The notes: generated by a model from the sequence alone, not told the origin. Counted from the stretch's first letter, positions 9,992 to 46,883 are shown. The stretch is DNA of 51,970 nt from Treponema sp. (GCA_031275325.1 JAISOX010000031.1:1-51970), one strand, 5' to 3'. Numbers and translations are program-made.

Positions 9992-10180
9992 GCCAGGGCC
10001 TGAAGAAAAAAAGCCATGGCCTAAAGAAATAAAGCCAGGGCCTGAAGAAAAAAAGCCAGGGCCTGAAAAAATAAAGCCATGGCCTGAAGAAAAAAAGCCA
10101 TGGCCTGAGAAAATAAAGCCAGGGCCTAAAGAAAAAAAGCCATGGCCTAAAAGAATAAAGCCCTGGCCTAAAAAGAGGGA
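9992..10180 (+). repeat. 21-bp tandem array A (9 units): GCC(A/G)(T/G)GGCC core followed by an A-rich tract
   Basis: Units start at 9992, 10013, 10034, ... 10160. Examples are GCCATGGCCTGAAGAAAAAAA and GCCATGGCCTAAAGAAATAAA. There are no indels. Confidence 0.95.
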
Positions 10181-20229: not shown

Positions 20230-21005
20230 ACCAGCAGGAACTAGAAAAGACAGAAAAGCCGAAACTGGATGTGCAGGAACTGGATGTGTTCTACGGGGCG
20301 TTTCACGCGCTGAAAAAGATCACCTTTACCCTCCAGCCTCGGGAAATCGCCGCGTTTATCGGCCCCTCAGGATGCGGAAAGTCAACCTTTCTCCGGGTGT
20401 TTAACCGGATGAACGACCTCATCCCCTCCTGCCAGATTACCGGAACCGCGCTCATAGACGGGGAAGACATCTACCGCGGCATGGACGTAACCGAATTGCG
20501 GAGCCGGGTGGGGATGGTCTTTCAGAAACCCAACCCCTTTAACATGAGCATCTTCGATAACATCGCCTATGGCCCACGGATGCAGGGCCGGCGGGACAAG
20601 CGGATCCTTGCCGAACTGGTGGAGGCTTCCCTGGTAAAAGCCGCGCTCTGGGATGAGGTGAAGGACCGGCTTAAACGCTCGGCTATGGGCTTGTCCGGGG
20701 GACAGCAGCAGCGGCTCTGTATTGCCCGGAGTATTGCCATGCAGCCGGAGATCATCTTGATGGATGAACCTACCAGCGCGTTGGACCCCTTGGCCACCAG
20801 CAAGATCGAAACCCTGATGGGGGAACTGAAAAAGGAGTACACCATTATCATCGTAACCCACGCCATGCACCAGGCTGCCCGGGTGAGCGACAAAACCGCG
20901 TTCTTCCTGCTCGGGGATCTGGTGGAATACAACGACACCAAAGCCGTATTCACCAATCCCCGGGACAGCCGGACCGAAGCCTATATCTCTGGCCGTTTTG
21001 GTTGA
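20226..21005 (+). CDS. pstB: Phosphate ABC transporter ATP-binding protein
   Basis: Walker A is GPSGCGKST, the signature motif is [13 protein letters not shown], and Walker B is [11 protein letters not shown]. It overlaps the pstA stop by 4 nt. Confidence 0.95.
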
Positions 21006-21103
21006 CCCCGTGGAGGCTGCTTCACCAAAGGAGAAACCAAGGGACCTGCGGCGCTCAAGGAACGCAGCCGCAATCACTCGCAAAAGGAGAGGTAAGAAAG
21101 AAC

Positions 21104-21739
21104 ATGTTTTTAATGAACCGGTTACGCCACGATATATTGGCTATGGCCTCTAAGGTGGAGGAAGATTTGGGCAAGGCCATTACTGCCCTGAAAAACAACG
21201 ACGATGAACTGGCCAAGGAAGTAAAGGCCGCGGACGCCATAGTAAACGGGATGCAGCTTAAAATTGAAGACCAGGCAGCGATCCTCATCGCTACCCAGCA
21301 GCCCGTGGCCCGGGACATGAGGGAACTGGTAAGCATCATTAAACTGGCAGGCCACCTGGAACGGATCGGGGATTACACGGTCCACATCGCCAAGGCAGCC
21401 CTCAAACTGTCCGGGGAACCGGCCTTCCGATCCTTGGAACGGCTTGAACGCATGGCCGCCATCGGCGCGGAGATGCTCCGGGCATCCATTACCGCGTACT
21501 TGAACCGGGATGTCCAGGCCGCCCGGATCACCGCTTTGTTGGACGATCAAATAGACGCGGAGCACAAGGCCCTGACCGAGGAAACCTTAGGGCTTATGTA
21601 TGAACATCCAGAACTGATAAAGAAGGCGGTCCGGCTGCTGCGGACTTCGGGCTTTCTGGAACGCCTGGGGGACCATATTACCAATATATGCGAAGGGATT
21701 ATTTATATGGTAGAAAGTACCCACGAAGAACTCAACTAA
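21104..21739 (+). CDS. phoU: Phosphate signalling complex protein PhoU
   Basis: Two PhoU repeats are present (ARDMRELVSIIKLAGHLERIGDYTVHIAK and FLERLGDHITNICEGIIYM). The start is ATG 21104 with AAAAGGAGAGG upstream. Confidence 0.9.
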   Translation: MFLMNRLRHDILAMASKVEEDLGKAITALKNNDDELAKEVKAADAIVNGMQLKIEDQAAILIATQQPVARDMRELVSIIKLAGHLERIGDYTVHIAKAALKLSGEPAFRSLERLERMAAIGAEMLRASITAYLNRDVQAARITALLDDQIDAEHKALTEETLGLMYEHPELIKKAVRLLRTSGFLERLGDHITNICEGIIYMVESTHEELN

Positions 21740-21743
21740 TAAA

Positions 21744-21773
21744 CTTGTTCGGAAACTGAAGTTTCCGGACAAG
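21744..21773. terminator. Bidirectional hairpin between the convergent phoU and recQ genes (palindrome family 2)
   Basis: CTTGTTCGGAAACT, loop GA, AGTTTCCGGACAAG. This is a 14-bp stem with one G-T wobble. Confidence 0.6.
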
Positions 21774-21774
21774 T

Positions 21775-23604
21775 CTAAGGACTTTCAGTGTGGGATCGGT
21801 GTTCCCGGATCAGGCGGGTAAAAATTTCGCCGTACTTCTCCATCTTTACCTTTCCTACACCAGAAACCCCTAAAAACTGCTCTGGATTCAGGGGCATTTT
21901 CCGGCACATATCCTGAAGGGAAGCGTCGGAAAAAATAATATACCCGGGTATACGGGCTTCCTGGGCCAGACGGTTCCGCACTGTCTTGAGCTTGATAAAG
22001 AGGCCCTGGTCCAATTCCGCTGTGTTGTCCGGTACGGTTGGGCGGGACTTCTCTTTAGGCAGCATCATCACCAGGGGCTTTTTTTCAAAGATAATTTCCC
22101 TGGAACGGGGAACGGAACAGACTACCGGATAGGCGTCGCCCTCAAGAGCCAGGTATTCCTGGGCGATGAGGTAATCCAGGATGGTTCTGATGCGGTGAAC
22201 ATCCATGTCCGCCATGATGCCGTAGGTGCTCAGGGAGTCCAGGCCCTGGGTGAGGAGTTTCTGGTTTTTGGTTCCCCGGAGTATATCCGCCACCATAGTC
22301 TTACCAAAACGTTTCCCCCGCTGTTCGATACGGTACACACAGGAGACAATTTTCTGCGCGGCCACCCGTATATCCATGGCTTCAAAGCGGGTCGTACAGT
22401 TAGAGCAATTGCCGCAATAGTGGGAAGGGGTATCCCCAAAATAGGCCAGCAGCCGGGCGCGCAGGCAATCGGTGGTGGTAGCGTAGTAAGTCATAGCTTT
22501 AAGCAGTTCCAGGTTATGCCTTACCAGGGCAGGATCTTTTGGCGGCTCTCCAGGCTGGCAGTTGGTGATGAGGAAGGTATTAGTCCGCCAATCCTGGGGG
22601 CTGTAATAGAGGATGCAATCCGCCGGTTCCCCGTCCCTGCCTGCCCTGCCTGCTTCCTGATAATAGCTTTCGATGTTCTTGGGCAGGTTGTAATGAATGA
22701 CAAAGGATACATTGGACTTGTCGATCCCCATGCCAAAGGCATTGGTGGCCACCATGAGGGGCTTCCGATCATAGATAAAGTCATCCTGGTTGGTCTGCCG
22801 TTCCTGATCATCCAGGCCCGCATGATACCGGGTGGCCTCATAACCGGCCGCGTTGAGGGCGGCGCTGAGTTCTTCCACGGTTTTCCGGGTGGAACAGTAG
22901 ACAATCCCGCTTTTGTCCTGGTGATTTTTCAGGTAGTCCTGCAGGGCCTGTACTTTATCCGGGGACTTGGGAATGGTTTGTACCGCAAAATAGAGGTTCT
23001 CCCGGTTAAACCCCGTGGTAAGGACATAGGGGTTTTCCAGGCGCAATATGCGGAGGATGTCTTCTTTGACCTTGCCTGTAGCAGTGGCGGTAAACGCGGC
23101 GGTGATGGGCCGCTGGGCAAGACTCTGGATAAATTCGTGGATTAACAGATAGCTGGGACGGAAGTCATGGCCCCATTGGGAAATACAATGGGCTTCATCA
23201 ATCACCACCATAGCAATACCCCCGGCCAGGCGCTGTACGGCCTCCCGCTTGAGCCCTTCAGGGGCGATATAGAGGATCTTGTAATCCCCCTGTACGGCCC
23301 GGCTTATGGTGGCCTGGTAGTCCCCTGGGGTGAGGGAACTGTTGAGGTAGGCCCCAGGAATAGCCCCTTCTTGCAGCCCGTTGACCTGATCCTTCATCAA
23401 GGAGATCAGCGGGGAAATAACCAGGGTGAGCCCCTCAAGGAGCAGGGCCGGAACCTGATAACAGAGGGACTTGCCCGCGCCTGTGGGCATCACTGCCAGG
23501 ACGTCCCGGTGTTCCAGGAGGGTATGGATGATTTCCTCCTGTCCCTGCCGGAATTGGGTAAATCCAAAATAGGTCTTGAGAATACTGCGTATATCCTGAT
23601 CCAT
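21775..23604 (-). CDS. recQ: ATP-dependent DNA helicase RecQ
   Basis: FGFTQFRQGQEEII...MPTGAGKSLCYQ (motif I), VIDEAHCISQWGHDFRP (DEAH), the Zn-binding CGNCSNC and a C-terminal HRDC-like region. The start is ATG 23604. Confidence 0.95.
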   Translation of the reverse strand: MDQDIRSILKTYFGFTQFRQGQEEIIHTLLEHRDVLAVMPTGAGKSLCYQVPALLLEGLTLVISPLISLMKDQVNGLQEGAIPGAYLNSSLTPGDYQATISRAVQGDYKILYIAPEGLKREAVQRLAGGIAMVVIDEAHCISQWGHDFRPSYLLIHEFIQSLAQRPITAAFTATATGKVKEDILRILRLENPYVLTTGFNRENLYFAVQTIPKSPDKVQALQDYLKNHQDKSGIVYCSTRKTVEELSAALNAAGYEATRYHAGLDDQERQTNQDDFIYDRKPLMVATNAFGMGIDKSNVSFVIHYNLPKNIESYYQEAGRAGRDGEPADCILYYSPQDWRTNTFLITNCQPGEPPKDPALVRHNLELLKAMTYYATTTDCLRARLLAYFGDTPSHYCGNCSNCTTRFEAMDIRVAAQKIVSCVYRIEQRGKRFGKTMVADILRGTKNQKLLTQGLDSLSTYGIMADMDVHRIRTILDYLIAQEYLALEGDAYPVVCSVPRSREIIFEKKPLVMMLPKEKSRPTVPDNTAELDQGLFIKLKTVRNRLAQEARIPGYIIFSDASLQDMCRKMPLNPEQFLGVSGVGKVKMEKYGEIFTRLIREHRSHTESP

Positions 23605-23686
23605 AAGCAGTTCATTATACCGGCCCTGAAAAAAAAGAAAAAGGCCGCATGCTGGGGGCCTCATCGGTGAGCATCCGCTTGAGCCT

Positions 23687-24715
23687 GGGGGTCAGTTTCA
23701 AGACTCCGGGTTAAAGTCTTGAGACTACAGGTTACAAGCTGGAGCTTCTGGGTTAAAGGCTAGAGCTTCTGGGACAAAAGCTAGAGCTTCCGGGGAAAAA
23801 GCTGGAGCTTCTGGGACAAAAGCTAGAACTTCTGGGACAAAAGCTAGAGCTTCCGGGACAAAAGCTGGCGCTTCTGGGTTAAAGGCTAGAGCTTCTGGGT
23901 TAAAATCTAGCGCTTCTGGGACAAAAGCTGGAGCTTCTGGGTTAAAGGCTGGAGCTTCTGGGTTAAAGGCTAGAGCTTCCAGGGCAAAAGCTGGAGCTGC
24001 CGGGTTAAAGGCTAGAGCTTCTGGGGCAAAAGCTAGAGCTTCCGGGTTAAAGGCTGGAGCTTCTGGGTTAAAGGCTAGAGCTTCTGCGTTAAAAGCTGGA
24101 GCTTCTGGGACAAAAGCTGGAGCTTCTGGGGCAAAAGCTAGAGCTTCTGGGATAAAAGCTAGAGCTTCTGGAGCAAAAGCTGGAGCTGCTGGGTTAAAGG
24201 TTAGAGCTTCTGGGTTAAAAGCTAGAGCTTCTGGAACAAAAGCTGGAGCTTCTGGATTAAAGGCTAGAGCTTCTGGGACAAAGGCTAGAGCTTCTGGGAC
24301 AAAGGCTGGAGCTTCCGGGGCAAAAGCTAGAGCTTCTGGGGCAAAAGCTGGAGCTTCTGGAGCAAAAGTTAGAGCTTCTGGATTAAAGGCTGGAGCTTCT
24401 GGGGCAAAAGCTGGATCTTCTGGGATAAAAGCTAGAGCTTCTGGGACAAAGGCTGGAGCTTCTGGAGCAAAAGCTGGAGCTTCTGGATTAAAGGCTGAAG
24501 CTTCTGGTACAAAGGCTAGAGCTTCTGGGTTAAAGGCTAGAGCTTCTGGATTAAAGGCTAGAGCTTCCGGGACAAAAGCTCTAGTCTACGGGTCAAAGTC
24601 TCAAGCCTGCAGGTTAAAGTCTTGAGACTACGGGTTAAAGTCTCAAGCCTGCGGATCAAAGGCTTGAGCCTACGGATCAAAGGCTTGAGCCTACGGATCA
24701 AAAACACAAGCCCCA
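23687..24715 (+). repeat. 21-bp tandem array B: 49 units in perfect register (40 core units at 23729-24568 flanked by an older unit type)
   Basis: The core unit is GGG-NN-AAA-R-GCT-R-GAGCTTCT. The flank units are GGGTTAAAGTCTTGAGACTAC, GGGTTAAAGTCTCAAGCCTGC and GGATCAAAGGCTTGAGCCTAC. All checked unit starts (23708, 24002, 24317, 24569, 24611, 24695) equal 23708+21k. Confidence 0.97.
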
Positions 24716-24891
24716 CAGTCTCTGGGGGCGAAAGCAGGGTTTCCTGCTTTGAGAATCTATTAAACAAAACTCCAAAAAACGATAAAAGACACCAAAAATC
24801 GACGGACGGGTAACCCTTATTGGCGGTGCGGTGAAATAGGAACTGGAAACGCCTTTTGGGGCAGGGGTTTATAGGACGCCCTTCCCTCTAT

Positions 24892-24952
24892 AAAAAAACG
24901 CCACGGTAAAAAAGGAGACGAACCGGCCTGCCTTCCCTCCTTTGCCGTGGCG
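24892..24952 (-). terminator. Intrinsic terminator of the TPP-enzyme gene
   Basis: On the minus strand, CGCCACGG (24952-24945), a structured loop, then CCGTGGCG (24906-24899) followed by T7 (24898-24892). It begins 7 nt after the stop codon. Confidence 0.7.
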
Positions 24953-24958
24953 GTTTTC

Positions 24959-26587
24959 TTATTCCCTGCGGCGGGCTTTCTTCTTCCGCTGTCTTGCAGC
25001 CTCAAGACATTCCCGTTTAAAAATCACCACGGAAAGTCCGGGATAGATAATTTCCGCGCGCAGACGGGCAGCGTTCTCCTGGATAAGGGGCTTTTTCGCT
25101 TCCAACTCAATAAGATGTTCCTCAGGAACCCCCAATCCCCGGATGAGTTCCCGGAGCTTGGAAGAGGGAACCATAGTTTCCTGACAGCCGGTCATGGCCA
25201 CAATGGCATTGTCCAGAATGACCAGGGTCATAGGGGTATTAGCCGCCGCCGCATCAATAAGACCGGTGATCCCTGAATGAAGAAAGGTGGAATCCCCGAT
25301 AACCCCAACCACATGGCGTATTCCCGCGTCTGCTGCGCCTTTCGCCATGCCCACCGAAGCGCCCATGCAGACAATGGATTCCGGCGCCTCATAAGGGGGC
25401 ATGGCCCCCAAGGAATAGCACCCAATATCCGCAGTAACCGCGGTGTTTTCAAGACCTGCCAGAGCCTGCTTAATGGTTTCGTAACTATCCCCGTGCGGAC
25501 AGCCTTGGCAAAGCTGAGGAGGACGGTTCGGCAGAGGAGGAATGGTAAGCCCTCCAGATAAAACACTGGGCCGAGGCGGGAGGCCAAGGCTTCTCCGCAC
25601 CTGATCTGGGTCCAATTCTCCAGTACGGTTTACCGTGCCGTCCAATTTCCCGGAGATACTACAGGAAGAAGGCAAAAGTCCCCGGATCTTTGCTTCGATG
25701 AACGGCTGCCCTTCCTCAATGATCAGGATCTGCTGGGCATCTTCACAGAGCCTGCGTATCAAAGAAACCGGCACAGGATACACCCCGATGTGGAGCCGGG
25801 CCGGCGGCTTCCCCTGGCGGAAACGGACCAGGTCTTCCCGGTTTTCTTCGTAATAGTTTCCCCCTAAACCTGCCGTAATGATTCCCCAGGACCGGTCCTT
25901 CCCCTCCAGTTCCAAGGTATTTTTAGGATGGGCTGTGGACCAGGCAAGGATATCCCCTTGCTTTTCGATAAGGGCTGCATAGTTTCTCCGGGCAAACCCT
26001 GGAAGGAGGATCCACTGGGTCTTGTCCGATGCTTTGGATAGGGGGTTTTGCCCTCGGGCTGATCCTGGCGACACCCCGGCCCGGGCATGGGACAGCCGGG
26101 TAGTCAACCTCAGCAGCACCGGAACCTGAAACTGCTCAGAAACCGCGAAGGCTTCCTGGGTCATCTCGTAGGCTTCCTGCTGGTTCCGGGGTTCCATACA
26201 GGGAACCAAGGCAAAATCCGCATAAAACCGGGAATCCTGCTCATTCTGGGAACTGTGCATCCCCGGATCATCTGCCACGGCAATCACCAAGCCTCCCCTT
26301 ATCCTCAAAAGACTGCCGTTGATGAAGGGGTCGGAAGCCACGTTAAGCCCCACATGCTTCATCGTAACCAGAGCTCGGCGGCCTGCGAAAGACACCCCCA
26401 AGGCCGCTTCCAGGGCAGTTTTCTCGTTGGTACACCACCGGGCAATGGGACCTCCTTGGGTATAAGCGTCCAGGAGGTATTCCATGATCTCCGTGGAGGG
26501 GGTCCCAGGATAGCCGTAAGAGGCGCTTACCCCTGCATGGAGGGCCCCCAAGGCCACTGCCTCATCTCCTAATACAATGTGTTCCAT
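24959..26587 (-). CDS. Thiamine-diphosphate enzyme similar to the indolepyruvate/2-oxoacid:ferredoxin oxidoreductase alpha subunit (IorA family)
   Basis: The N-terminus is GDEAVALGALHAGVSASYGYPGTPSTEI. The TPP motif is GDSTFLHSGITGLIDAAAANTPMTLVILDN. I saw no CxxCxxCxxxCP ferredoxin motifs and no beta-subunit gene nearby. Confidence 0.8.
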   Translation of the reverse strand: MEHIVLGDEAVALGALHAGVSASYGYPGTPSTEIMEYLLDAYTQGGPIARWCTNEKTALEAALGVSFAGRRALVTMKHVGLNVASDPFINGSLLRIRGGLVIAVADDPGMHSSQNEQDSRFYADFALVPCMEPRNQQEAYEMTQEAFAVSEQFQVPVLLRLTTRLSHARAGVSPGSARGQNPLSKASDKTQWILLPGFARRNYAALIEKQGDILAWSTAHPKNTLELEGKDRSWGIITAGLGGNYYEENREDLVRFRQGKPPARLHIGVYPVPVSLIRRLCEDAQQILIIEEGQPFIEAKIRGLLPSSCSISGKLDGTVNRTGELDPDQVRRSLGLPPRPSVLSGGLTIPPLPNRPPQLCQGCPHGDSYETIKQALAGLENTAVTADIGCYSLGAMPPYEAPESIVCMGASVGMAKGAADAGIRHVVGVIGDSTFLHSGITGLIDAAAANTPMTLVILDNAIVAMTGCQETMVPSSKLRELIRGLGVPEEHLIELEAKKPLIQENAARLRAEIIYPGLSVVIFKRECLEAARQRKKKARRRE

Positions 26588-29855: not shown

Positions 29856-29993
29856 GGATCAAGGTGTTTGATCCGCCCGGATCAAGGTGTTTGATCCGCC
29901 CGGATCAAGGTGTTTGATCCGCCCGGATCAAGTTGTTTGATCCGCCCGGATCAAGGTGTTTGATCCGCCCGGATCAAGGTGTTTGATCCGCCC
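29856..29993 (+). repeat. 23-bp tandem hairpin array D (6 units)
   Basis: The unit GGATCAAGGTGTTTGATCCGCCC occurs 6 times, starting at 29856, 29879, ... 29971. Each unit has a GGATCAA/TTGATCC 7-bp inverted repeat. Unit 4 carries one G-to-T variant. Confidence 0.95.
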
Positions 29994-30106
29994 GGGGCAT
30001 TAACCCCGCTGGCGGGTTTGGCTCCAAAGCGGCAAAGGCCCGAAACAAGGGGCGACCCGCCTTCTTTCCACCGCGGCCATACAGGGGCATTAAGCCCGCT
30101 GGCGGG
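29994..30106 (+). repeat. Y - X' - Y' modules (duplicated tail of the composite element)
   Basis: Y is GGGGCATTAACCCCGCTGGCGGG (29994-30016). X' at 30017-30082 repeats GGCTCCAAAGCGGCAAAGG...CTTTCCACCGCGGCC from 29790-29850. Y' is GGGGCATTAAGCCCGCTGGCGGG (30084-30106). Confidence 0.75.
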
Positions 30107-34206: not shown

Positions 34207-34380
34207 GTAACCCGCTGCGGGCTTGCCGTGCCCGCGGGGCTGCTCGTTTTTCTTGTTTGACCGGGGAGATCCAGCGGGTGTACTGGACGAGGGCGCAGGG
34301 GTAAAGGTTTTTCACCCATTCCCGCACGGCCCTGTCCGGGCGGGGCATATAACCGGTCTGCATCGCATACCCCCTTTTTT

Positions 34381-34569
34381 AGGCCATGGCTTTTATTTTA
34401 TAGGCCATGGCTTTTATTCTTCAGGCCATGGCTTTATTTTTTCAGGCCATGGCTTTATTTTTTCAGGCCATGGCTTTATTTTTTCAGGCCATGGCTTTTT
34501 TTCTTCAGGCCATGGCTTTTATTTTATAGGCCGCGGCCTTTTTTCTTGAAGCCAGGGCTTTAATGCTGC
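34381..34569 (-). repeat. 21-bp tandem array A' (9 units), an inverted copy of array A
   Basis: The units AGGCCATGGCTTTTATTTTAT, AGGCCATGGCTTTATTTTTTC and similar start at 34381, 34402, ... 34549. They are the reverse complement of the 9992-10180 unit type. Confidence 0.95.
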
Positions 34570-42326: not shown

Positions 42327-42641
42327 ACGGCAGGATGTACGCTCCGGGCATGAAGTTTTAAGCTCTGATCAGCAAGTTTCATGTTCCGAACAGGGAGATC
42401 CTCGCTCCGAGCAGGAAGTTCCATGCTCCGAGCAGGAAGTTTCAAGCTCTAAGCAGGAAGTTCCATGCTCCGAGCAGCAAGTTTCCAGTTCCGAACAGGA
42501 AGTTTCAAGCTCTAAGCAGCAAGCTCCATGCTCCGAGCAGCAAGTTTCCAGTTCCGAACAGGAAGTTTCAAGCTCTAAGCAGCAAGTTCCATGCTCAGAG
42601 CAGGAAGTTTCAGGTTCTGAACAGGAAGATGACCCTGAAAC
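42327..42641 (+). repeat. 21-bp tandem array C (15 units) with a 63-bp higher-order period
   Basis: Units such as GCAGGAAGTTCCATGCTCCGA, GCAGGAAGTTTCAAGCTCTAA and GCAGCAAGTTTCCAGTTCCGA start at 42327+21k. The array begins 8 nt after the lptG-family stop codon. Confidence 0.95.
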
Positions 42642-46768: not shown

Positions 46769-46883
46769 AAAAAATAAGCCAAGTGAACAGCTTCACCCAG
46801 ACCAGGTGCATGTCATCACCTAAGCCAAGTGAAGGGCATCACCTAAGCCAGATGAAGGGCATCACCTAAGCCAGATGAAGGGC
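46769..46883 (+). repeat. 23-bp tandem repeat (3 near-identical and 2 degenerate units)
   Basis: ATCACCTAAGCCA(A/G)(G/A)TGAAGGGC occurs at 46815, 46838 and 46861. Degenerate units lie at 46769 and 46792. Confidence 0.85.

Follow-up and report, generated by a model that had tools for sequence, protein, structure and literature searches.

A 49-unit array of 21-bp palindromic repeats upstream of recQ in Treponema sp. and a family of similar arrays in termite-gut spirochaetes

Bacterial minisatellites, or VNTR loci, of which the mycobacterial MIRUs are an example, are intergenic head-to-tail repeats of tens of base pairs, with a copy number that differs between close relatives and edge units that are more degenerate than the interior ones. 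Direct repeats are also found on plasmids and phages: the 43-bp repeats of F sopC, which contain inverted repeats, the iterons of 17–22 bp, and the iterons of the lambda ori. In spirochaetes, a block of 63-bp tandem repeats was reportedly described in 2000 by Casjens and co-workers on lp21 of Borrelia burgdorferi; we know of no palindromic 21-bp sub-unit in that block. In the REP families, the unit is palindromic, sub-families carry alternative complementary residues in the stem, and units with short stems form tandem arrays (PMC3733652).

Here we report the analysis of a tandem array located upstream of recQ in a stretch of 51,970 nucleotides from Treponema sp. (GCA_031275325.1, JAISOX010000031.1:1-51970), hereafter called the window. 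The array is composed of 49 units of 21 bp, 40 of a core type and nine of a flank type, the latter lying on both sides of the core. Its nearest likeness is to REP/BIME elements, and more precisely to clustered short-stem GTAG REPs such as the GTAG-1 arrays of Thauera sp. MZ1T (Di Nocera et al. 2013, PMC3733652). As in REPs, an extragenic unit of 20–40 bp is built around an imperfect palindrome (here 5+2+5), the stem changes in a complementary manner between sub-families (here across 26 arrays), the units form tandem clusters next to genes, and there is variation between strains. On the minus strand, the palindrome is accompanied by GTAG at the unit start in 5 of the 9 flank units, both flanks taken together, and by GCAG in 2 of the 9. 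The differences from REPs are that (i) the 40 core units carry GAAG and not GTAG, (ii) the stems are just 5 bp long with a 2-nt centre, (iii) REPs are mostly dispersed singletons or head-head or tail-tail dimers, whereas the units are found only in head-to-tail arrays, with no unit-like singletons outside the arrays in the 52-kb window, and (iv) no transposase, and hence no RAYT (IS200/IS605-type) enzyme, is encoded among the 36 window proteins that were scanned, the window being the part of the genome in view. Because only head-to-tail arrays and no single copies occur, GTAG is restricted to the flank units and no transposase is in view, the array is best called REP-like and not REP.

The locus was also compared with the other described systems. 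Like minisatellites, the array consists of head-to-tail, non-coding 21-bp copies, which lie between the terminator of the upstream gene and the promoter region of recQ, its edge units are more degenerate than those inside, and its copy number varies among close relatives (see below); unlike them, it has an unusually high copy number (49) and unit diversity, its units are palindromic, its period is indel-free, and one unit family is present at many loci in many species. The direct tandem arrangement, the internal dyad symmetry and the spacing of an approximately integral number of helical turns are reminiscent of sopC and of iterons, whereas the array is flanked by recQ and an oxidoreductase gene, the copy number is 49 instead of ~4–12, several unrelated palindromes are found in a single chromosome segment, and the array is absent at this locus in relatives. 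Iterons and plasmid centromere repeats were rejected, as there is no rep or par gene in the neighbourhood and the 52-kb window holds four 21-bp arrays with three different palindromes, the recQ array included. With the lp21 block the array shares the character of a long non-coding spirochaete tandem array, the lp21 period being a multiple of 21 and the array having a 63-bp higher-order period; the lp21 block differs in sequence and is carried by a plasmid. Finally, the array is not a CRISPR, as the preliminary description had concluded: the units abut without spacers, the variable part is only 5–6 nt with 2–4 states, and no cas domain was found in the window proteins.

Organisation of the array and its surroundings

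The region comprises the following features.
21775–23604, minus strand: recQ, 609 aa, with DEAD, Helicase_C, RecQ_Zn_bind, RQC and HRDC domains
23614–23642, minus strand: recQ promoter-proximal region, with a T-rich tract (23629–23642) and a TATAAT box (23614–23619)
23687–23728: proximal flank, with two units of the flank type, GGGGGTCAGTTTCAAGACTCC and GGGTTAAAGTCTTGAGACTAC; window unit 1 is also represented in the short allele L001
23729–24568: array core, units 3–42, 40 units of 21 bp with consensus GGGTCAAAAGCTAGAGCTTCT
24569–24715: seven distal flank-type units, with palindromes AGTCT..AGACT and AGGCT..AGCCT
24730–24749: hairpin AAAGCAGG-GTTT-CCTGCTTT, just distal to the array and retained in L001
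24888–24960: bidirectional intrinsic terminator, ending the upstream gene (24959–26587, minus strand)

With a start at 23604, the recQ product has a length in line with that of its closest homologues (608–613 aa). The organism is a Treponema of the termite-gut type, and the best RecQ matches come from metagenome-assembled Treponema and Spirochaetaceae genomes. The TATAAT box is located 9 nt before the recQ ATG, and 45 bp separate the T-tract from the array upstream of it; the arrangement of T-tract and TATAAT box is kept in three related recQ loci (L001, L002 and L003, see below). A promoter scan gave no full −35/−10 match in the promoter-proximal region and no promoter-like site in 23300–25300. 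The array occupies the recQ-upstream side of the 1.35-kb gap between recQ and the terminator. The latter, initially placed at 24892–24952, was confirmed by folding on both strands (24888–24960: −32.1 kcal/mol on the minus strand and −28.2 kcal/mol on the plus strand), with U-runs after the stem on both; the gene that it ends encodes a protein with thiamine-diphosphate domains of the pyruvate:ferredoxin oxidoreductase type. We also considered whether a second terminator insulates recQ from the array, and discarded this idea, as the small hairpin followed by a T-run folds no better than shuffles (z=0.28). The remainder of the window is ordinary housekeeping chromosome (pst-phoU, metK, rbfA-truB-ribF, pnp, dut, lptFG).

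When positions 23687–24715 were cut into 21-mers, 49 abutting head-to-tail units were obtained in perfect register, with zero indels. TRF run on the window reported 23736–24580 as 40.2 copies of period 21 with 82% matches and 0% indels, the 63-bp higher-order period mentioned above, and the distal flank units in rows of their own. The unbroken register claimed in the preliminary description therefore holds, as does the position of the 40-unit core inside flank-type units, two proximal and seven distal. The core unit contains an inverted repeat, A-R-G-C-T (positions 8–12) and A-G-C-T-T (15–19), separated by a 2-nt centre (13–14), and a linker of 9 nt (20–21 and 1–7). The 40 core units comprise 31 distinct sequences in a non-periodic order, without indels. 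They vary at positions 3, 4, 5 and 21 (linker), 13 (centre) and 9, where either an A or a G is found and the pair with T18 is kept either way, as A-T or G-T. Two details of the preliminary description needed revision: position 15, listed with these variable positions, is nearly invariant (2 of 40 units differ), and the proposed core pattern GGG-NN-AAA-R-GCT-R fits exactly in 18 of the 40 units, or in 28 once GGR and TCY are allowed. In terms of per-position entropy, a few positions of the core are near-maximal and the remainder are almost fixed; together with the 31 distinct units among 40, this looks like constraint or a strong mutational bias and not like a recent clean amplification.

The flank-type units are more heterogeneous than the core type. 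As their arms (AGTCT/AGACT and AGGCT/AGCCT) are built on the same plan as those of the core, the changes between arms are compensating. In addition, adjoining distal units with CTCAAG and CTTGAG cores, which were expected to pair, form 9-bp inter-unit hairpins on both strands upon folding (−32.7 kcal/mol, z ~ −4). These data show that pairing is possible both inside a unit and between adjacent units.

The substitutions had also been described as codon-like. One frame per strand is stop-free, 23723–24622 on the plus strand (300 aa) and 24585–23728 on the minus strand (286 aa), and a frame search across the array on either strand confirmed that both lack ATG, GTG and TTG. Because any one frame of a random 21-mer has a probability of (61/64)^7 = 0.71 of containing no stop, such open frames are uninformative; by our own arithmetic, ~4 of the 6 frames are expected to be open for a random 21-bp unit, and the array, with 2, is below this expectation. 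The codon-like character did not withstand an entropy-by-phase test: the third positions (3, 6, ..., 21) hold 2.82 of 8.38 bits, i.e., 33.7% (permutation p=0.48; chance 33%), the first-codon positions hold more (45%), and positions 6, 12 and 18, which are four-fold degenerate third positions in the plus frame, are invariant in the 40 core units. Codon adaptation, calculated with 30 window genes as the reference, is 0.44 for the plus frame and 0.47 for the minus frame, compared to 0.715 ± 0.029 for the window genes and 0.566 for the same genes read out of frame. The sole Pfam match to the array is marginal and repeat-driven (a beta-roll repeat, 33 bits, no significant stretch). The entropy-by-phase test and codon adaptation rule out a codon signal, and with no start codon, chance-level third-position entropy and poor codon adaptation, the array is non-coding; the earlier statement that it is not conventionally coding stands.

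A family of 21-bp palindromic arrays

Three further 21-bp arrays are present in the window.
9992–10169: 8.5 copies of GCCATGGCCTGAAGAAAAAAA, with the palindrome GCCATGGC, in the gap that separates dciA from a histidine kinase gene
34375–34562: 8.9 copies of the GCCATGGC unit seen at 9992, in the opposite orientation, upstream of rbfA
42341–42628: 13.7 copies of GCTCCGAGCAGGAAGTTTCAA, no indels, between lptG and an AraC-type regulator gene
Three 23-bp hairpin arrays bring the total to seven arrays of period 21–23 in 52 kb.

We then extended the analysis to other genomes. A scan with a pattern for the GGGNNAAAAGCTNNAGCTTCY unit, verified on the window beforehand, identified 21-bp arrays free of indels in no fewer than 12 termite-gut Treponema/Spirochaetaceae genomes (MAGs), and a narrower pattern identified 12 further arrays in JGI metagenome contigs, which are taken to be from termite gut; several of the latter arrays are fully embedded and the longest (L094) has 36 copies. 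All the family arrays found are head-to-tail. The linker GGGTCAAA is common to arrays with unlike palindromes (AAGCTTAAGCTT, AAGTACGTACTT, AATCTTAAGATT, TGTCTTAAGACA and AAGTCTTTAGACTT), the palindrome differs between arrays within one genome, and array types abut or grade into each other in three cases (L030, L066 and L093), as in L030, where a AAGCTATAGCTT-type array grades into the GCCATGGC type. GTAG is found in some sister arrays (L049, L066) and GGAG in others. TRF rows at period 21 show 0% indels in 38 of 49 cases (mean 84.5% matches), compared to 5 of 14 rows at other periods; neutral slippage leaves this strict 21-bp period unexplained. Literature searches returned no description of these 21-bp arrays, and as far as such searches tell the family is undescribed.

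A palindrome of 10–14 nt is present in most arrays, including those that were not selected by the search pattern. When the consensus units of 26 arrays were placed in a common register, pair 10–17, which is not forced by the search pattern, was G-C in 15, U-A in 10 and unpaired in none, and pair 9–18 was A-U in 13 arrays and G-C in a further 7. Overall covariation scored 0.488, a value reached by 0 of 500 shuffles (0.213 ± 0.028), while slid partners scored at most 0.17. Paired cells amounted to 81% across the 26 arrays versus 65.5% in shuffles, figures to be read with the fact that the register was set by the best palindrome, which favours pairing, the shuffle tests being a fairer control for the arrays not selected by the pattern. 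These data show that the complementarity of the arms is kept across the family while the arm sequence changes. Within arrays, variation in a set of 15 falls on positions 21, 1–5 and 13–14 (linker and palindrome centre); positions 6–12 and 15–20 vary little on average, 15–20 and 10–12 being near-invariant. The constant and variable positions of the recQ array thus recur in 14 other family arrays, and its variable positions are better described as linker (21, 1–5) and palindrome centre (13) than as a codon phase. A substructure of three heptamers was not retained other than as a lead, as the lag-7 self-similarity is weakly raised (0.31 in the core, up to 0.44 in other arrays).

The orientation of the arrays relative to the flanking genes is mixed. 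A fixed orientation to the downstream gene held in the first four cases and failed on 29 arrays and on 12 gene-linked arrays; some arrays are located between convergent genes or downstream of genes. One association is constant: at 12 of 12 loci, a 21-bp array of varying unit sequence ends 27–94 bp upstream of the same conserved gene of 221 aa, which is absent from the window. Family searches with its product gave no match, and the protein models as a helical bundle and an FN3-like sandwich. According to our own reading of the unit orientations, the linkers on the sense strand of this gene are C-rich in ~5 cases and G-rich in 6. The presence of an array before this gene at 12 of 12 loci suggests a role, at least in that context.

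Alleles at the recQ locus

We compared the window with the closest recQ loci. Two of these, L002 (RecQ 88% identical) and L003 (83% identical), lack an array at the recQ locus and differ from the window in the genes that precede recQ. The third, L001, is a contig from a short-read de Bruijn assembly of run SRR14710916, and is the sole contig crossing the recQ upstream region. It is identical to the window over 20846–23650, has 3 mismatches in 23651–23664 and shares no 31-mer with it further upstream. Its array is limited to ~3 units of the flank type, whose counterparts in the window are unit 1, unit 48 and the proximal junction, and its distal flank, hairpin included, is 80% identical to that of the window. 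Another contig of this run (L099) is 100% identical to the window for 2,717 bp, up to its end within the 9992 array, indicating that the same or a nearly identical strain is present in SRR14710916. L001 may therefore consist of a recQ part from the window strain joined to the upstream part of a co-occurring relative; whether or not it is such a composite, a short allele with flank-type units only exists. A metagenome scan for the recQ-proximal junction returned nothing, and no contig was obtained when RbfA, the AraC-type regulator and the oxidoreductase encoded upstream were looked up as exact proteins.

Between close relatives, the copy number is thus 49 in the window, ~3 in L001 (which is possibly a composite of two strains) and none in L002 and L003, and the proposal that length and phase are conserved at this locus is not sustained. 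The short allele argues against a conserved long array and, being made of flank-type units, supports an expansion of the core from within, as had been suggested from the window sequence. The view that the flank units are the older, hairpin-forming type, inside which the core type expanded, is therefore supported.

On balance, the recQ array is likely to be a non-coding, REP-like, hairpin-prone minisatellite, a very large member of the lineage-wide 21-bp family. Slipped-strand mispairing and unequal recombination, both presumably favoured by the hairpins, would change the length of such arrays in either direction; templated correction or conversion between units would hold the stems uniform, leaving loops and linkers free to mutate. 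At recQ, the core unit type would have been amplified inside a proto-array of 2–3 units lying between the terminator of the upstream gene and the recQ promoter. For the expression of recQ, the sequence of such an array is probably of no specific importance, its one effect being to displace the upstream DNA by 1 kb.

Alternative readings

The array could instead be a functional DNA-level element, in which phased palindromes, one per two helical turns, are read by a structure- or shape-reading protein or form cruciforms, organising the local DNA or tuning the adjacent promoter, with the copy number as a contingency-like parameter. The strict 21-bp period, for which slippage does not account, and the constant position of the array before the 221-aa gene lend a structural function some probability; nevertheless, we consider this reading rather unlikely for the recQ array. 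It is favoured by a period that stays strict and indel-free despite the drift of the unit sequence, by the conserved arms and variable linkers of the 15 arrays compared, by the positional conservation at the 12 gene-linked loci, by the short distance (45 bp) between the window array and the recQ T-tract and −10 box, and by the lack of orientation preference, which is what is expected of a feature of double-stranded DNA. However, the relatives have no array at the recQ locus, and other arrays are located between convergent genes or downstream of genes. Furthermore, as the palindromes differ between the arrays of one genome, a single sequence-specific dimer cannot bind all of them, and no DNA-binding candidate was found, the predicted fold of the 221-aa protein being unlike that of a DNA-binding protein, so that it is no obvious candidate for binding the arrays. 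Nor does the period of two helical turns look like a design: the predicted curvature is ~20 degrees per unit, a bend equalled or exceeded by 27% of the arrays built from shuffled units. Designed curvature was rejected on these grounds, the path given by the wedge model (with parameters from the literature) being indistinct from that of shuffles and the other window arrays being uncurved.

In its boldest form, and one that we hold to be doubtful, this reading would mean that termite-gut spirochaetes carry an undescribed class of cis-elements: covarying palindromes repeated at exactly 21 bp that act through structure and phase and not through sequence, for instance as a cruciform or hairpin scaffold read by a protein, obligatory before the 221-aa gene and with the copy number as a heritable dial that changes rapidly. 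If this were true, the recQ array would rank as the largest instance known, and could even be a substrate that is kept stable by RecQ, a hairpin-resolving helicase.

A transcribed structured RNA appears less probable still. Here, a chain of hairpins on the recQ-sense (minus) strand, each followed by a U-rich stretch, would be a barrier to read-through or an insulator between the upstream gene and recQ, a leader that confers stability, or a sponge for a protein. The minus strand indeed folds far better than shuffles (−82.1 kcal/mol, z=−5.6; plus strand, z=−0.44), a terminator scan located six hairpin-plus-U sites in the array and one at its distal edge (24711–24727), all on the minus strand, and a G-U pair lengthens the arms on the pyrimidine-rich strand; REPs are thought to work mostly as RNA elements downstream of genes (PMC3733652). 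Against this, a strong minus-strand terminator precedes the array with no promoter-like site between, the orientation of the family relative to flanking genes is mixed, and Rfam gave no family match, with nothing at the gathering threshold and a chance-level raiA match only (E=0.35). A CsrA-type sponge is unlikely because GGA is present in just 8 of the 40 core units, and a CsrB/RsmZ-type sponge RNA was accordingly discarded, there being also no promoter-like site and no Rfam match. A G-quadruplex with hairpin loops was discarded as well: GGG recurs every 21 nt here, but the sister arrays have no G-run.

It is very unlikely that the array is an assembly artefact and that the true array is shorter or ordered otherwise. 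Such an artefact could account for the window-identical short-read contigs of SRR14710916 ending inside the 9992 array (L099) and for the 3 units of the only contig that crosses the recQ upstream region; a second assembly spanning the 49 units was not found. However, 31 distinct units in a non-periodic order and without indels are unlike the collapse or over-expansion produced by an assembler, family arrays of 17–36 units are fully embedded in independent metagenome contigs, and L001, as it has no window 31-mer upstream of 23651, represents another allele and not a collapsed copy.

The weakest alternative, that the array encodes a heptad repeat (G-x-K-A-[R/G]-A-S on the plus strand or P-E-A-[L/P]-A-F-x on the minus strand) or is a pseudogene of one, could draw on the single frame open for 286–300 codons per strand, on substitutions at positions 3, 9 and 21 that are synonymous in both frames and on the marginal beta-roll match, but is largely refuted, and most improbable, given the missing start codons, the chance-level third-position entropy with three invariant four-fold degenerate positions, a codon adaptation under the out-of-frame level, sister arrays that are intergenic, in either orientation and likewise devoid of start codons, and 23-bp arrays of the same style in the same window.

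Taken alone, the recQ locus is a hypervariable repeat of little consequence; it is usable as a strain marker, and it gives warning that arrays of this kind cause breaks when these genomes are assembled. More interest attaches to the family as a whole: a single type of 21-bp palindromic unit is spread over many intergenic regions throughout a clade of uncultured gut symbionts, keeps its period and the complementarity of its stems while its sequence drifts, and accompanies one conserved 221-aa gene in every locus seen. If these arrays are functional, they would represent structural regulatory DNA or RNA of a kind new to bacteria; if they result only from hairpin-driven slippage, they would offer a clean natural system for the origin and homogenisation of palindromic minisatellites.

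Sequence identity at the array edge and the recQ start

The window and L001, a short-read contig carrying recQ and about three flank-type units, are 100% identical over 20846-23650. Identity falls at 23651-23684, where shared 31-mers are lost within 35 bp of the array, and the distal flanks of the array are only 80% identical. The edge of the recQ-upstream array therefore falls on a boundary between alleles or on a recombination boundary. In the window (23604-23619), in L001 and in the array-less recQ loci of relatives (L002 and L003), the recQ ATG has a TATAAT or TATACT box 9 nt 5' of it (4/4 sequences), and no ribosome-binding site was evident by eye at the recQ start in any of them; as read from these sequences, the recQ mRNA may be leaderless.

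Other repeat arrays

The window contains three 23-bp tandem arrays, two of which sit between convergent genes:

29856-29995, 23-bp tandem array
46775-46883, 23-bp tandem array
867-913, 23-bp tandem array

The units of all three are also hairpins (for example GGATCAA-GGTGT-TTGATCC, 6.1 copies, 98% match). On three contigs from scans for sister arrays, array types with unlike palindromes adjoin directly or grade together, as in AAGCTATAGCTT -> AAGCCATGGCTT -> GCCACGGC, with the 21-bp register kept:

L030:6-475, joined arrays
L066:1643-2273, joined arrays
L093:240-995, joined arrays

The non-spirochaete matches of the genome scan (L005-L084) include long microsatellites with a 7-bp unit (AGTCTAA / AGACTTT type) in many genomes, from Prevotellaceae and other groups; some of these tracts have a higher-order 21-bp organisation. 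Genuine palindromic arrays with a 21-bp unit were also found outside spirochaetes, in Pyrinomonadales (L012, L028), Phycisphaerae (L078) and Prevotella (L023, L070).

A conserved gene adjoining sister arrays

A conserved protein of about 221 aa (N-terminus M.QRTDWLP) is encoded outside the window at 12 loci (L018, L027, L049, L053, L076, L085, L087, L090, L092, L096, L097 and L098). An indel-free 21-bp array precedes the gene in 12/12, ending 27-94 bp before the ATG, with unit sequences that vary from locus to locus; variable lipoprotein genes follow it. The protein has 973 homologues; within the best 120 listed, nearly all that carry an organism name are from termite-gut spirochaetes. It matched nothing in Pfam, PHROG or NCBIfam, and its predicted model (pLDDT 72) combines a helical bundle with an FN3-like sandwich.

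At four loci, the DNA 240-600 bp upstream of the gene holds perfect 7-bp repeats (GAGCCGT, GGCTTGC or TCACAAC; 10-15 copies, 100% match):

L027:443-541, 7-bp repeats
L053:272-343, 7-bp repeats
L018:458-538, 7-bp repeats
L076:1-103, 7-bp repeats

In L053 and L027, the repeats begin 2 nt past a TATAAT box oriented away from the gene. The arrangement looks like a phase-variable tract at the 5' end of a transcript.

In L098, a Wadjet cluster encloses the gene, along with a lipoprotein-like gene of 513 aa and a MazE/PIN pair:

L098:7124-17959, Wadjet cluster (jetA, jetB ... jetD, jetC)

This placement inside the cluster suggests that the 221-aa gene moves as a small module able to insert elsewhere.
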